Below are positions 1,850 to 13,520 of a stretch of 25,668 nt of DNA, piece after piece. Under the pieces are notes generated by a model. That model saw nothing but the letters and a program-made list of their open reading frames with translations. It did no database searches and was not told where the DNA came from. The translations under genes were made by a program, and so were the position numbers. This DNA is from a virus, in the UHGV virus genome UHGV-0118908. One strand, written 5' to 3'. Within the stretch, counting starts at the first letter, position 1, and each line of letters opens with the position of its first letter.

Positions 1850-2038
1850 TCACTCTCCTTTAGTGCGCAAGTGGTTTTTCCAGCGGTTTTGCGCCGCACT
1901 GGGCTTTTTGCAACAGCTGTGACCCATCACCCCGCAACACCCCGTCAACCTCACTCGTCTGTTACTAATCCTCAACCATCGCCAGACCCCAACACCGTTT
2001 CTGCTAGCTAACAGAATTTTTGCCTTACGGTTTTTCAT
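1850..2038 (-). CDS. Small basic Trp/Arg/Cys-rich ORF (62 aa), candidate
   Basis: GGAG 9 nt upstream of ATG at 2038; its start overlaps the stop of the upstream small ORF (ATGA) and its stop falls in the RBS of the next gene. No recognisable family. Confidence 0.3.
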   Translation of the reverse strand: MKNRKAKILLASRNGVGVWRWLRISNRRVRLTGCCGVMGHSCCKKPSAAQNRWKNHLRTKGE

Positions 2039-2208
2039 CGTTTTGTTCTCCTGCGTTTCCTTGCTGCTCGTTTCGCCGCTGCAACGCCTGTACGGCGTTT
2101 CGGTGCCGGAATGATGCTGTCAGCCATCAGGACATACGGCTTTGCAATTAGCGCAGAAGCCCAAAAACGAGTCGGGTACGGTAACAAGCCGATACATGCC
2201 ACACGCAT
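2035..2208 (-). CDS. Small ORF (57 aa) with strongly basic C-terminus (KRAARKRRRTKR), candidate
   Basis: Not in ORF track (under 60 aa). ATG at 2208 overlaps the TAA of the upstream gene (TAATG) and is preceded by AAAGGAGGTGAG; its TGA overlaps the ATG of the next ORF. Confidence 0.35.
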   Translation of the reverse strand: MRVACIGLLPYPTRFWASALIAKPYVLMADSIIPAPKRRTGVAAAKRAARKRRRTKR

Positions 2209-2738
2209 TACTCACCTCCTTTGATGCGAATGCCAGCGGCGCGGATTGCAGCGATGACTTCAGAAACTTTGTATGCCATTACCGTTTGGTAATCCTCGTG
2301 AAAATCTGTTCGATGAAGCATGCTGCTACGTTCTGGGAGCGATATTTCCCGTGCTTCCAGTTCTGCAATGCGCTTCTCTGCGGCTTCCAGCTCAACGCGC
2401 AGCCTCCCAACCGTAAGCGCAATATCCTCGTTCTCCTGGTCGCGTGATTTGATGTATTGCTGGTTTCTTTCCCGTTCATCCAGCAGCGCCAGCACGGTAG
2501 CCGGACTGGCTGCGGCGATAAATTCAGCATTGGCCTGCTGTTCCATTTGGAAATCTTCATCGAAACCGCTTTCAGGATGCGCTCCTTCAATTCTGCAAAT
2601 GGGAATATATCCAGCAGCCTCGCGATGAATTAGCGCATCATCACCATCAAATCGGCCCTCTCCATATTCGAGCGACCACTCGCCACACGTTGCTTTTTCT
2701 GCCTTTTCACGCAGTGCCTGATAGTCAATTTTGCTCAC
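2208..2738 (-). CDS. Ea22-like early-region protein (coiled-coil rich)
   Basis: 176-aa ORF; N-terminus MSKIDYQALREKAEKATCGEW resembles the Ea22-like family of lambdoid prophages (from memory); ATGA overlap with the upstream methyltransferase gene at 2735..2738. Confidence 0.45.
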   Translation of the reverse strand: MSKIDYQALREKAEKATCGEWSLEYGEGRFDGDDALIHREAAGYIPICRIEGAHPESGFDEDFQMEQQANAEFIAAASPATVLALLDERERNQQYIKSRDQENEDIALTVGRLRVELEAAEKRIAELEAREISLPERSSMLHRTDFHEDYQTVMAYKVSEVIAAIRAAGIRIKGGE

Positions 2739-3220
2739 TGGTTGCCCTCCTTCATAAAAATAATCCAGTGGGTCTTGTCACCCTTTCCTGTTCGTTGACC
2801 GATAACAGGCTTTCTGTCTGTCAGTGCCAATATTTGGCGAACAGGTATTTGCGTTTCATTCCATTTAAAAATCAGAACACCATATGGCCACAACACACGA
2901 AAGGCTTCTTTAAATCCCTGCCGCAAATCATCACGCCAGGTATCTTTATTCAGCCGTCCATATTTCTTTCCCATCCAGGCGTTATCACCAACACGCTCAA
3001 GATGCGGAGGGTCGAATACAACAACCGGAAACGATGCGTCTGCAAATGGTAATGCACGAAAATCTGCTATCAGGTCAGGGCTAATTATCAGCCGTCGGCC
3101 ATCACACAATATGTGATCTTCCTTTCTGATATCGCTAAATATCGCCCGGTCGTCCTTCTTATCGAACCAGAACATGCGACTGCCACAGCACATGTCGAGG
3201 ATTGCTGCATGTCCAGTCAC
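2735..3220 (-). CDS. Small SAM-dependent methyltransferase (DPPH catalytic motif), likely orphan DNA (or RNA) methyltransferase
   Basis: 161-aa ORF with glycine-rich LDMCCGSRMFWF (motif I-like) and VVFDPPH (motif IV-like, DPP[YFWH] class); ATGA overlaps with both neighbouring genes; no adjacent restriction endonuclease recognisable. Confidence 0.55.
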   Translation of the reverse strand: MTGHAAILDMCCGSRMFWFDKKDDRAIFSDIRKEDHILCDGRRLIISPDLIADFRALPFADASFPVVVFDPPHLERVGDNAWMGKKYGRLNKDTWRDDLRQGFKEAFRVLWPYGVLIFKWNETQIPVRQILALTDRKPVIGQRTGKGDKTHWIIFMKEGNQ

Positions 3221-3699
3221 TGGTTGCCTCCTTTGCGAAGCTGGGCGGCGAATCTCTCAGCATCAACAGCGCTTCCGCAATAGGCGGCGCGAGTCATGGA
3301 ATCCAATTCGTTGCGGTTTTTTCTGACGTATTCCTTCTGGCTTTCAGCAAACAACTCTACCCCCTGCGCCCGTACTTCAGCCAGGAATGCGTCGGTGGCT
3401 GGGGTTTCAGTAACATCATCTTCCCATTCGCTAAACTCCTCACGACAAAAGTCATTAAATTCCTTCTCAGATTGCTTAAGCGAGGTATTTTCAGCAGCCA
3501 TCTTCGCGCACTTGGCATCAAGGTTATCAATCGTGATTCCAGCAGAACGACACTCACGAAACGCCGTTTCTAGTTTTGATTCAAGTTCACCGAACTTACG
3601 CACCAGATATTCAGCGTTTGTTTCGTTAACCTTTAAATCTCGTGGGATGCATTTACCTTTCAGAAAACCATCCATCTCAATTAGTGACATTTGTTTCAT
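3217..3699 (-). CDS. Hypothetical acidic coiled-coil protein; start ATG 3699 favoured, GTG 3717 alternative
   Basis: ORF-track entry 3217..3717 begins at a GTG; in-frame ATG at 3699 ([11 protein letters not shown]...) overlaps the TGA of the upstream 54-aa ORF (ATGA). No family recognised. Confidence 0.5.
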
Positions 3700-3860
3700 T
3701 TCTTCCCACTCCGCCACATCGCATTCAGATATTTGTTGTCATTAACAGAACCGAAACTCTTTCTCTTAAGCAATTCTTCTCTCGATGGCATTGGCTTTAC
3801 GCGTTGGCGAATAATCATTTCTGCCGGAAGAATGCCGGGATTGTATGCAAGTCCTCTCAT
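3696..3860 (-). CDS. Small ORF (54 aa), candidate
   Basis: Not in ORF track. ATG at 3860 is preceded by AGAGGA with 7-nt spacing; stop overlaps the ATG of the downstream gene; reads [36 protein letters not shown]... Confidence 0.35.
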
Positions 3861-3876: not shown

Positions 3877-4191
3877 TTAATTTATTCGTATGCCTGCTCT
3901 TTCTTCATCGAGTTTTTTTAGCTTGTATCGCATAGCTCTTACTGAATAAATTGAGCGGCAGGTTGCAATTGCTATTTCTTCTGCTGAGAACTTACCGAAA
4001 AGTGATACTTCGGCTCTTGTCCATCGTCTTCCACGAAGTCGGTTAACAATGTCAGCGCCAATCCTTGTTGCTTTCGCCATTACTGCTTTTTCAGTCCTTT
4101 CCAGTTTTTCTGCGATAACTTCAACTGGCATTGTCGCCGCTACCTCGCGCAAGAAATCGACTTCCCATTTCTCCCATGGAGTCTTTTTCAT
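3877..4191 (-). CDS. Hypothetical protein (104 aa), possibly two tandem helical W-containing repeats
   Basis: ORF-track entry; two similar segments ([12 protein letters not shown]... and [14 protein letters not shown]...). No confident family assignment. Confidence 0.45.
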
Positions 4192-6911: not shown

Positions 6912-6950
6912 GTTATCCTCTGTTGTTTATGCCAAAAATAAAGGCCACCA

Positions 6951-7151
6951 TCAGGCAGCCTTGTTGTTCTGTTTACCAAGTTCTCTGGCAATCATTGCCG
7001 TTGTTCGTATTGCCCATTTATCGACATATTTCCCATTCTCCATTACAGGAAACATTTCTTCAGGCTTAACCATGCATTTCGATTGCAGCTTGCATCCATT
7101 GCATCGCTTGAATTGTCCACACCATTGATTTTTATCAATAGTCGTAGTCAT
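6951..7151 (-). CDS. ral: Ral-like restriction-alleviation protein
   Basis: 66-aa ORF MTTTIDKNQWCGQFKRCNGCKLQS...AIRTTAMIARELGKQNNKAA agrees closely with lambda Ral as remembered; located just downstream of N as in lambda. Confidence 0.6.
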   Translation of the reverse strand: MTTTIDKNQWCGQFKRCNGCKLQSKCMVKPEEMFPVMENGKYVDKWAIRTTAMIARELGKQNNKAA

Positions 7152-7905: not shown

Positions 7906-9258
<1,353 letters not shown>

Positions 9259-12549: not shown

Positions 12550-12996
12550 ATGAAGCAAATATATATGCTTCGCAACGAAGCAATCAGAAACAACACCATA
12601 GACGCAATACTCTCACTACCGATCGACGACAAGTCACCTCACGAAGTCCACGTTAAAGAACCCAAGCGGAGCAATTCTCAAAACCGCCTTATGTGGGCGT
12701 TATTGCAGGACGTATCACGTCAGGTGCTTTGGCATGGACAGAGACTTGCGCCGGAGGACTGGAAAGACCTGTTTACTGCCCTGTGGCTTAAGACCAAAAA
12801 ACTGGAGCAACGAAGTGTGCCTGGTATCGACGGTGGCGTTGTCATGCTTGGCGTGCGTACCAGCAAAATGCGAAAGGCCAGCATGACTGAGCTTATCGAA
12901 ATCATGTTTTGGTTCGGCTCAGAGCGCAACGTGCGGTGGAGTGATGACTACCGGCGAGAGTATGAATGGTCACAACGAAAAGGTAGGGCTGCATGA
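12550..12996 (+). CDS. ninB: NinB (Orf-family recombination mediator)
   Basis: 148-aa ORF; QNRLMWALLQDVSRQVLWHGQ...[24 protein letters not shown] parallels lambda NinB conserved positions. Confidence 0.8.
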   Translation: MKQIYMLRNEAIRNNTIDAILSLPIDDKSPHEVHVKEPKRSNSQNRLMWALLQDVSRQVLWHGQRLAPEDWKDLFTALWLKTKKLEQRSVPGIDGGVVMLGVRTSKMRKASMTELIEIMFWFGSERNVRWSDDYRREYEWSQRKGRAA

Positions 12997-13520
12997 CTAT
13001 CAAATCAAATACGCCAGCACACGACAAGGACTGCTGGCAAACGCCGCTTTGGCTTTTTGATGCACTGGATATTGAGTTTGGATTCTGGCTGGATTCGGCA
13101 GCGAGCGACAAAAATGCTCTGTGCGCTCACTGGTTAACTGAGGCCGACGACGCGCTCAATTCTGAGTGGGTAAGCCACGGTGCAATCTGGAATAACCCAC
13201 CGTACAGCAATATCAGGCCGTGGGTGGAAAAAGCCGCTGAGCAGTGCATACAACAGCGACAGACGGTAGTGATGCTTGTGCCAGAGGATATGTCTGTCGG
13301 ATGGTTCAGCAAGGCTCTGGAGAGTGTTGACGAAGTTCGTATTATCACTGATGGACGGATTAATTTTATCGAACCATCGACAGGGCTGGAGAAGAAGGGA
13401 AACAGCAAAGGTTCCATGCTGCTGATTTGGCGACCGTTCATCAGGCCTCGACGGATGTTTACTACCGTATCCAAAGCGGCATTGATGGCGATCGGGCAGG
13501 GCGTCAGGAGGGCGGCATGA
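12993..13520 (+). CDS. Phage Dam-type N6-adenine DNA methyltransferase (NPPY motif)
   Basis: 175-aa ORF; N-terminal [24 protein letters not shown] and IWNNPPYS match the phage N-6-adenine methyltransferase family; ATGA overlaps with ninB and ninE. Confidence 0.8.

Follow-up and report, generated by a model that had tools for sequence, protein, structure and literature searches.

The early-left region of the virus genome UHGV-0118908, a stretch of 25,668 nucleotides analysed here in full and referred to below as the window, carries between positions 2208 and 3860 a chain of overlapping genes, one of which encodes a small orphan methyltransferase. This raises the questions of whether the chain works as a single anti-defence unit and on which substrate the methyltransferase acts. 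All four consecutive minus-strand ORFs listed in the initial annotation are present (Table 1). The block is an ordinary mosaic accessory region in the early-left (pL) operon of a P22-like lambdoid prophage. The explanation we prefer, and judge reasonably probable as a whole, is that it forms the accessory genes at the distal end of the pL operon, the counterpart of the lambda exo-xis or 'ea' region, and that the methyltransferase most likely acts on DNA.

Upstream of the block, on the same strand, lie N, Ral, RecT and a Mu-Gam-like gene. The Ral product is 97% identical to lambda Ral, which bears out the earlier remark that Ral lies upstream in the same operon. To the right are the repressor, CII, DnaB, NinB, RusA, Q and lysis genes, and P22-type portal, scaffold and coat genes. 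Between ~6270 and ~725 the minus strand has no strong terminator-like site and one weak match, at ~1517, inside an ORF. The gene order and this terminator-free stretch agree with the proposed early-left, N-antiterminated location downstream of Ral. An Rfam scan of the whole window returned no RNA families. Base composition across the block is mosaic (39–53% GC), and the methyltransferase cassette carries no clear signature of its own.

Table 1. Features of the accessory block and of the genes that follow it, in order of transcription (window coordinates)
Feature	Position	Strand	Match or content
DUF2737 protein, 54 aa (HK620 hkaI / HK97 gp38 type)	3696..3860	-	Pfam PF10930, phrog_1117
Acidic all-helical protein, 160 aa (HK97 gp37 / mEpX1 gp30 type)	3217..3699	-	phrog_614
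Linker copy 1, AAGGAGGCAACCAGTGA	3217..3233	-	End of 160-aa gene; methyltransferase Shine-Dalgarno and GTG start
Orphan SAM-dependent methyltransferase, 161 aa, GTG start	2735..3220	-	phrog_954; motif I LDMCCGS; DPPH
Linker copy 2, AAGGAGGGCAACCAGTGA	2735..2752	-	End of methyltransferase gene; Ea22-like Shine-Dalgarno and GTG start
Ea22-family coiled-coil protein, 176 aa	2208..2738	-	Pfam PF13935 Ead_Ea22
Very basic ORF, 57 aa, pI 12	2035..2208	-	phrog_13831, E 4e-35
ORF, 62 aa	1850..2038	-	phrog_1380, E 2.7e-32

The three internal junctions had been described as ATGA overlaps. A four-base overlap is present at each, but only that at 3696..3699 is ATGA; at 3217..3220 and 2735..2738 the downstream gene starts with GTG and the overlap reads GTGA. 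The translational coupling deduced from them is supported by the stop/start overlaps together with GGAGG-type Shine-Dalgarno sequences, which lie 7–8 bases 5' of the methyltransferase and Ea22-like starts; GGAGG also precedes the start of the 57-aa ORF. The coupled chain runs on past 2208, through a TAATG overlap into the 57-aa ORF and an ATGA overlap into the 62-aa ORF, so that the series down the chain reads ATGA, GTGA, GTGA, TAATG, ATGA. The junction between the Ea22-like gene and the 57-aa ORF is AAAGGAGGTGAGTAATG. Overlaps of four bases between stop and start are frequent in phage operons and unremarkable alone.

The flanking proteins are acidic (pI 4.9 and 4.8), as had been noted. The further statement that they belong to no recognisable family does not hold: the 54-aa, 160-aa and 176-aa ORFs all match existing families, which are recognisable but whose functions are poorly known. 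The 54-aa protein, which is basic (pI 10.7), matches Pfam PF10930 with an E-value of 5e-29 and 100.4 bits (gathering cut-off 25) over profile positions 1–52 of 53, and phrog_1117 with an E-value of 2.5e-38; homologues in HK620, mEpX1 and E. coli genomes are named 'DUF2737 family protein'. The 160-aa ORF, its length counted from the ATG at 3699 that is the start used by nearly all homologues, matches phrog_614 (E 6e-60), and the homologues listed are enterobacterial and labelled 'hypothetical' or 'CPS-53 prophage protein'. Their alignment is mosaic by blocks: the N-terminus is conserved, other blocks vary, and the C-terminal ..QLRKGGNQ is invariant. The AF2 model of this protein consists of five helices, some of them long, with a mean pLDDT of 77; at a pTM of 0.36 such an elongated helical model is unsuitable for a fold search. 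Our literature searches found no paper on DUF2737, HK97 gp37 or the methyltransferase family, and no activity is known for the DUF2737 protein or the HK97-gp37-like one.

The gene downstream of the methyltransferase had been called Ea22-like, and the match of its product to PF13935 (E 1.4e-33, 116.8 bits; gathering cut-off 27) confirms this. BLASTP aligns it with lambda Ea22 (E 5e-26) from the N-terminal region into the first part of the coiled coil. The likeness comprises an N-terminal helix, the coiled-coil start (ERERNQQYIK.RDQENEDIALTVG.LRVELE) and a C-terminal AGIRIKG(G)E; the window protein ends ..AGIRIKGGE, and the IRIKG(G)E end is common to lambda Ea22. It also displays the block-wise mosaicism described for Ea22 (PMC7093339), but 36 residues are inserted near its N-terminus, and its middle and C-terminal domain differ from those of lambda Ea22. 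The lambda/Stx exo-xis region occupies the same position, at the distal pL end between the recombination genes and xis. In contrast to lambda, the recombination module here consists of RecT and the Mu-Gam-like gene, the virion genes are P22-like, and orf60a, orf61, orf63 and ea8.5 are absent from the block, which holds other cassettes instead, including the methyltransferase. The sole experimental data that we found report a pro-lysogenic role, not an anti-defence one, for the Ea22 of lambda and Stx phages (PMC7093339); by analogy, the protein encoded here would be expected to tilt the lysis-lysogeny decision towards lysogeny.

Closer comparison of the junctions revealed how the block is put together. 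The methyltransferase gene is a 482-bp cassette between direct repeats GGAGG(G)CAACCAGTGA, which are two copies of a conserved gene-junction sequence of 16–17 bases. Copy 1 encodes (K)GGNQ and the stop of the 160-aa gene, and copy 2 encodes (K)EGNQ and the stop of the methyltransferase, each together with the Shine-Dalgarno sequence and GTG of the next gene. The window contains exactly two copies of the 12-mer core GGCAACCAGTGA, where chance would give 0.09 (at most one mismatch). In mEpX1 the same junction lacks the methyltransferase, and a single linker copy connects the 160-aa homologue with the Ea22-like gene that directly follows it: ..CAGCTTCGCAAAGGAGGCAACCAGTGA is followed immediately by GCAAAATTGAC.., flanks that in the window are split by the methyltransferase gene and the second linker copy. 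The linker also stands ahead of the methyltransferase where this follows a DUF2737 gene (L012) or an Ea22-like gene (L010). At least 120 viral contigs carry an 18-mer form; its distinct contexts number 98, with many different downstream ORFs. Since it joins many different gene pairs, the genes are independent, shuffled modules and not one system, and since the linker is common to the cassettes, recombination at it could exchange them. We hold the mosaic-cassette reading of the block with high confidence.

Lambdoid gene-boundary mosaicism likewise shows the presence or absence of cassettes exactly at a short common intergenic sequence, and many alternative neighbours on either side. The linker differs from the usual lambdoid junctions in combining 18 bases of coding sequence, ribosome-binding site and start codon, and in being reused several times per operon; a limited literature search found no earlier description of it. 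On this reading the block is a string of small, independently exchangeable cassettes, co-transcribed under N antitermination and each probably translated by re-initiation at the four-base stop/start overlap. The linker, AAAGGAGG(G)CAACCAGTGA, at once ends the upstream gene (..KGGNQ, stop), carries a ribosome-binding site and provides the next GTG start; the comparative structure suggests that homologous recombination there could swap, insert or delete cassettes while expression is kept. The methyltransferase gene may have entered in this way, which would have left it between two linker copies.

The description of that gene as encoding a small DPPH methyltransferase is well founded. The protein matches phrog_954 over residues 3–160 (E 8.7e-87), and F69-D70-P71-P72-H73 is invariant in 64 relatives, as are the motif I residues; DPPH is found as well in nine aligned phage and archaeal-virus members, lies directly after strand 4, and conforms to the motif IV consensus of the methyltransferases of exocyclic amino groups (N6-A / N4-C / N2-G), (D/N/S)PP(Y/F/W/H). 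The PADLOC model MTase_II (PDLC03288; 169 profile positions) matches residues 6–160 with an E-value of 8.8e-73, the oMTase model also matches, and the NCBI name is only 'class I SAM-dependent methyltransferase'. The protein has the Rossmann-like seven-strand fold and glycine-rich motif I of that class, as well as its acidic residues for binding the ribose and adenine of SAM. Motif I (residues 8–14) precedes DPPH (residues 70–73), an order I then IV that departs from the permuted order of beta-class enzymes (IV–VIII, recognition domain, X, I–III). The catalytic core fills almost all of the 161 residues, and there is no target-recognition domain. At this length, and lacking such a domain, the protein is unusually small for a DNA methyltransferase, which speaks against a DNA substrate. 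Longer relatives carry heterogeneous extensions with no recognised DNA-binding domain. We considered these fusion partners as a clue to function and set them aside, as they hold no informative domains and probably reflect gene calling or read-through. The isoelectric point was likewise rejected as a diagnostic of function, being too variable across the family (pI 4.9 to 9.4, not uniformly basic). The family comprises 2721 clusters at 50% identity. Its very high cross-phylum conservation is atypical of sequence-specific DNA methylases and also speaks against DNA; the recognition parts of such methylases diverge.

Profile comparisons gave a mixed picture. The 161-aa protein scores below every gathering cut-off of the Pfam DNA-methylase models PF01555, PF02086, PF02384 and PF05869, and in Pfam matches only Methyltransf_11/25, below threshold. 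Among the 64 relatives, 42 match PF01555 (N6_N4_Mtase), all weakly (best E 6e-5; two scored individually fell below the cut-off), while Methyltransf_11 and Methyltransf_25 match 63. With hhalign, a beta-class phage N6A methylase aligned at 73% probability (E 3e-5) over 54 columns around motifs IV–VI. By fold, the closest solved structures are methyltransferases of small molecules, tRNA and rRNA (among them Trm11, TrmN, RsmC and Bud23), with M.TaqI ranking lower, and PDB sequence searches with the single protein and with the profile returned only generic methyltransferases. Literature and PDB searches found no characterised member, solved structure or DNA-methylation experiment for the family.

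The absence of a partner restriction enzyme, claimed earlier, was upheld within the ORFs scanned (those of the early-left region and those of at least 90 aa elsewhere in the window), where RusA was the only endonuclease family. No restriction endonuclease lies beside the homologues in the eleven other phages and prophages examined; in a Halorubrum virus the neighbouring GIY-YIG gene is annotated as a homing-type nuclease. The phage has a second methyltransferase, a PF05869 Dam at 12993..13520, to which the 161-aa protein has no sequence similarity. Phage orphan DNA amino-methyltransferases (T1/VT2-type Dam PF05869; beta-class N6_N4_Mtase PF01555; the non-specific Hia5 and M.EcoGII) are likewise phage-borne, early-expressed and, like the gene in this window, without a cognate endonuclease, and they have the (D/N/S)PP(Y/F/W/H) catalytic loop in common with it. 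Motifs IV–VI weakly resemble those of PF01555 enzymes, but the motif order of beta-class enzymes is IV then I. Hia5, at 281 aa, has a recognition region at about residues 80–170 (PMC3299994) that the 161-aa protein lacks. The region from 'gD..LPf.d.sFdlVv' to '..RVLkPgG.l' is of the Methyltransf_11/25 type, whereas small-molecule class I enzymes have no PP loop. The (D/N)PP(Y/F) RNA methyltransferases Trm11, TrmN, RsmC and RsmD differ in having THUMP or other RNA-binding extensions, and class I enzymes in having the helices between strands 1 and 4 that are missing from the predicted model. Other identities were rejected: Hia5 and Hin1523, since Hia5 has DPPY besides its greater length and recognition region; M.EcoGIX, a plasmid-borne single-strand-specific enzyme; and the pneumococcal phage SpSL1 cds16 'N6 adenine methylase', for which no adenine methylation was detected and whose negative result does not transfer because it belongs to a different, beta-class family.

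Tight translational coupling within a single transcription unit could mean that the four (or six) genes form one system for anti-defence or host takeover, with the coiled-coil proteins as targeting factors or regulators of the methyltransferase, and some contigs do fuse it to the downstream coiled-coil protein (P0002, for example, of 279 aa). Loss of the stop codon inside the common linker explains these fusions, however. Contrary to the co-functioning block implied at the outset, the methyltransferase is a self-contained cassette with quite different neighbours elsewhere: in strain 19AR1321 it comes directly after DUF2737, in strain 472 an Ea22-like gene stands on each side of it, and in a Klebsiella phage it belongs to the pR-side replication module, where it follows O and P. 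Gram-positive, Bacteroidota, Verrucomicrobia and archaeal viruses carry it without an Ea22, DUF2737 or gp37-like gene, and mEpX1 retains the flanking genes without it. We regard a single system as improbable. It is very improbable that the gene is a decaying or inactive passenger without current function. It does lie in a prophage early operon, repressed in lambdoid lysogens, close relatives such as mEpX1 lack it, and split or frameshifted copies exist, as in Klebsiella phage ST16-OXA48phi5.1. Against this, the ORF is unbroken and keeps all 44 residues that are invariant in the family, and a good Shine-Dalgarno sequence precedes its GTG start; its product is 98% identical to a protein cluster on 116 contigs; and DNA matches occur in 945 of 5426 complete E. 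coli genomes (17%), with at least 80% coverage in 855.

The substrate is the point on which a different answer deserves most discussion. The enzyme might methylate another universal exocyclic amino or amide substrate and so manipulate host translation or signalling, the candidates being rRNA or tRNA (as for RsmC, RsmD, Trm11 and TrmN), protein glutamine (HemK), and a free nucleotide or nucleotide-based immune signal. The missing recognition domain favours this, as do the generic class I, tRNA and rRNA enzymes among the top fold matches, the near-universal Methyltransf_11/25 matches, and a PDB profile search that matched only PH0226 and, with an insignificant E-value, the RsmD-like HI0767. Identities of 38–65% across coliphages, Gordonia, Firmicutes, Bacteroidota and haloarchaeal viruses suggest a substrate invariant between hosts. 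DNA, however, is also a universal substrate, and the targets in rRNA and tRNA are not the same in bacteria as in haloarchaea. From DPPH through motif VI the protein is similar to beta-class DNA N6/N4 methylases, and the PHROG and PADLOC curators place the family among DNA methylases. In other phages the gene is always in the early replication-recombination module, and in two cases it immediately follows, and overlaps, a C5-cytosine DNA methylase gene. A non-DNA target seems unlikely to us, if by no means negligible; we lean towards DNA because of the weak PF01555 matches, the hhalign alignment of motifs IV–VI and the early replication-recombination context.

With DNA as the preferred substrate, the enzyme would be an amino-methyltransferase of minimal size, made up of the SAM-binding core and the invariant DPPH loop and lacking a target-recognition domain. 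Most likely it would methylate adenine N6 or cytosine N4 in phage DNA that replicates early in lytic growth, with sequence specificity that is presumably short or low. Together with Ral and the Dam-type methyltransferase, it could thereby shield progeny genomes in advance from restriction in their next host. A putative anti-restriction role of the methyltransferase is plausible.

The locus itself is a textbook mosaic accessory region, and its value lies in the methyltransferase family and the linker. The common linker AAAGGAGGCAACCAGTGA would provide a concrete mechanism for in-frame, expression-preserving exchange of cassettes in the 'ea' region. The related junction AAAGGAGGTGAGTAATG encodes ..KGGE and could account in a simple way for the conserved K/R-G-E motif at the C-terminus of Ea22 proteins: the motif, unexplained according to the literature, would then be an embedded ribosome-binding site and not a protein feature. 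We suggest, tentatively, that PHROG 954, which occurs in haloarchaeal viruses and in the phages of most bacterial phyla, may be a class of minimal methyltransferase (~150 residues, no target-recognition domain, invariant DPPH) with either a low-specificity DNA target or a universal non-DNA one. If the former is true, DNA methylation with little or no specificity would amount to broad anti-restriction by potentially the smallest DNA methyltransferase known; if the latter, a universal target such as an adenine-containing nucleotide signal or RNA would imply a general counter-defence. Phage annotation would benefit from knowledge of the substrate, which could also yield a compact tool for methylation or reveal a new anti-restriction strategy.

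The block consists of four consecutive minus-strand ORFs that overlap by 4 bases in every pair, as the initial annotation had described. All three overlaps had been read as ATGA, which holds for the 54-aa/160-aa pair (3696..3699) only; those at 3217..3220 and 2735..2738 are GTGA, so that the methyltransferase and the Ea22-like gene have GTG starts, each with a GGAGG 7-8 bases 5' of it. The 160-aa length takes the ATG at 3699, which nearly all homologues use, as the start. The coupled chain does not end at 2208, the boundary first assigned, and continues through a TAATG into a 57-aa ORF (phrog_13831) and then through an ATGA into a 62-aa ORF (phrog_1380). Four-base start/stop overlaps are routine in phage operons. 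The original observation is confirmed in part.

Coordinates of the block genes, the linker copies and the methylase gene pairs of two other phages
Feature	Position	Strand	Assignment
54-aa ORF	3696..3860	-	DUF2737
160-aa ORF	3217..3699	-	PHROG 614
161-aa ORF	2735..3220	-	PHROG 954 methyltransferase
176-aa ORF	2208..2738	-	Pfam Ead_Ea22
Linker copies in window	3217..3233 and 2735..2752	-	AAAGGAGGCAACCAGTGA-type junction
Gordonia phage Bosnia gp64/gp65 pair	L001 1469..3468		C5 methylase PF00145, about 500 aa
Akkermansia phage Chantilly pair	L008 1509..3465		C5 methylase PF00145, about 500 aa

The 12-mer GGCAACCAGTGA has exactly two copies in the window, one at each end of the methyltransferase gene, against a chance expectation of 0.09 with one mismatch allowed. 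It belongs to a linker, one sequence that holds the last five codons of the upstream gene, a ribosome-binding site and the next start codon. In phage mEpX1 the homologue of the 160-aa gene ends in ..CAGCTTCGCAAAGGAGGCAACCAGTGA and passes directly into GCAAAATTGACTATCAGGC, where the Ea22-like gene starts; both flanks recur in the window, with the methyltransferase gene and another copy of the linker between them. The linker also lies 5' of the methyltransferase after a DUF2737 gene (strain 19AR1321) or an Ea22-like gene (strain 472). In a scan of IMG/VR, at least 120 viral contigs (L014-L133) carried the exact 18-mer AAAGGAGGCAACCAGTGA, in at least 98 distinct pairs of upstream C-terminus and downstream N-terminus. 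It is preceded by DUF2737 or many different C-termini and followed mostly by Ea22-like N-termini, and in other cases by the methyltransferase or one of eight or more further small ORFs. This range of joined gene pairs marks it as a reusable inter-cistronic linker of the lambdoid 'ea' region. From the sequences we infer recombination at the linker, by which cassettes would be swapped with expression kept. Some contigs carry methyltransferases fused C-terminally to a coiled coil (P0002, 279 aa; P0009, 248 aa), and the P0002 extension resembles the downstream Ea22-like gene; read-through fusions of the P0002 type are apparently the product expected from stop-codon loss in the linker.

A related arrangement closes the Ea22-like gene. 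Ea22 proteins have a conserved K/R-G-E at the C-terminus, described as 'of unknown significance' (PMC7093339). In the window (..KGGE, 2208..2224, -) it is encoded by AAAGGAGGTGAGTAATG, which comprises a Shine-Dalgarno sequence and the overlapping start of the next ORF. A role as ribosome-binding site for the next gene would offer a simple explanation of the motif. Lambda retains AAAGGAGAGTGA (L011 2148..2160) with no downstream gene overlapping there, and these codons may be a relic of a former one.

The proteins on either side of the methyltransferase are acidic (computed pI 4.9 and 4.8), as had been noted, but the view that the flanking proteins lack a recognisable family did not hold. The 54-aa ORF is a DUF2737 protein (100 bits against a Pfam cut-off of 25) with counterparts in HK620 hkaI and HK97 gp38. 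The 160-aa ORF (PHROG 614) is of the HK97 gp37/mEpX1 gp30 type, and its listed homologues are all enterobacterial and labelled 'hypothetical' or 'CPS-53 prophage protein'. In the alignment the N-terminal 75 residues and one further 19-residue segment are conserved, internal and C-terminal blocks come in several alternative versions, and the ..QLRKGGNQ end is invariant; the AF2 model has five helices, of which two are long (pLDDT 77, pTM 0.36). The Ea22-like assignment stands: the 176-aa protein matches Ead_Ea22 with 117 bits, and its N-terminal helix, the initial stretch of its coiled coil and its C-terminal AGIRIKG(G)E are also present in lambda Ea22.

The 161-aa protein matches PHROG 954 'DNA methyltransferase' (E 9e-87) and the PADLOC MTase_II and orphan-MTase models; its only Pfam matches, Methyltransf_11/25, are sub-threshold, and NCBI names it a 'class I SAM-dependent methyltransferase'. 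Relatives 38-65% identical occur in haloarchaeal tailed viruses and in phages of Gordonia, Corynebacterium, Staphylococcus, Listeria, Streptococcus, Enterococcus, Lactobacillus, Porphyromonas, Akkermansia, Vibrio and Acinetobacter. A profile search returned 2721 clusters (50% identity) at E <=0.001 and 428 at E <=1e-30, and 945 of 5426 complete E. coli genomes match the gene. Across 64 aligned relatives 44 columns are invariant, including LDxCCGS (motif I), D30, D53-F54, F69-D70-P71-P72-H73 (motif IV) and K119-W120. The confident AF2 model (ma8b419d208c3; pLDDT 89, pTM 0.87) consists of the seven-strand class I core alone, without any extra domain, and a PDB search found no solved structure related by sequence. 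No helices are assigned between strands 1 and 4; in the model, conserved loops and a hairpin (SRMFWFDK, LCDGR) replace the usual helices A-C of the Rossmann-like fold, so a partner, a second subunit or the substrate may cover one sheet face. Hia5 and M.EcoGIX are different enzymes. No adenine methylation was detected for the SpSL1 'N6A methylase', which is a member of another family.

In the other phages examined the gene always lies within the early replication-recombination module, with no adjacent restriction endonuclease. In Bosnia and Chantilly it is directly 3' of, and overlaps, a C5-cytosine DNA methylase; the C5 methylases of these unrelated phages are only distant kin. Outside enterobacteria the methyltransferase occurs without any of its partners in the block, and its neighbours are combinatorial, which argues against the block genes forming one co-functional system.

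Literature and PDB searches gave no experiment showing DNA methylation by a member of this family. The 161-aa enzyme probably methylates DNA. The DPP-aromatic loop, typical of exocyclic-amino methyltransferases, is invariant; 42 of 64 relatives match Pfam N6_N4_Mtase weakly (best E 6e-5); PHROG and PADLOC place the family among DNA methylases; and its gene neighbours are replication/recombination genes and DNA methylases. An hhalign comparison with a beta-class phage N6A methylase (73% probability, E 3e-5) covers motifs IV-VI, although the motif order of such methylases differs from the I-then-IV of the 161-aa enzyme. Action on a substrate other than DNA is less likely. Against DNA stand the missing target-recognition domain, the failure of the protein to reach the threshold of any DNA-methylase model, nearest folds that act on RNA or small molecules, and an unusually high cross-host conservation.

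The window is a P22-like lambdoid prophage, and the block is the equivalent of the lambda exo-xis ('ea') region. Its right-hand neighbours, also on the minus strand, are a 104-aa ORF (phrog_11492), a Mu-Gam-like gene, RecT, several small ORFs, Ral (97% identical to lambda Ral) and N, which bears out the placement of Ral upstream in the same operon. Farther right are an S24/HTH repressor, CII, an O-like initiator, DnaB, NinB, a PF05869 Dam methylase, RusA and Q, and then holin, Rz, terminase and P22-type portal, scaffold and coat genes; a DUF551 protein and an excisionase-like gene lie to the left. No strong terminator-like site was seen on the minus strand from ~6270 to 725, and this stretch, with the co-oriented N, Ral and RecT genes, suggests that the block is part of the N-antiterminated pL transcript.

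Several other features of the window were noted. A strong terminator-like hairpin with a T-run (6941..6962, -) overlaps the last few Ral codons; it lies inside the pL transcript, and read-through would need N antitermination. The interval between N and the repressor, where lambdoid phages have exclusion or moron genes, holds a phrog_2651 ORF (7906..8382, -) with a signal-peptide-like segment. The 104-aa ORF (3877..4191, -), kept at equal length in mEpX1, also matches the C-terminal part (positions 145-269 of 319) of PHROG 323 'transcriptional regulator, D5-like', and by this match resembles a separately encoded piece of a larger protein family. The nin-region Dam (12993..13520, +; PF05869, E 1e-64; phrog_111) is directly 3' of NinB with a 4-base overlap and has no sequence kinship to the 161-aa enzyme; the phage thus has two small orphan methyltransferases, plus Ral.

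The block genes are co-oriented in a terminator-free stretch, with Shine-Dalgarno-preceded overlaps and a cassette structure. N-dependent early transcription and coupled translation across the overlaps would express them, and recombination at the linker would exchange the cassettes. The 161-aa enzyme would methylate replicating phage DNA early, complementing Ral and the nin-region Dam methylase; Ral alleviates type I restriction in lambda. The Ea22-like protein may favour lysogeny, as Ea22 of lambda and Stx phages is reported to be pro-lysogenic (PMC7093339). The interpretation first proposed is supported in part. Every block gene is a member of an existing family and the architecture is a familiar lambdoid mosaic; the remaining interest lies in the linker, which is reusable, and in a minimal methyltransferase family that is uncharacterised.
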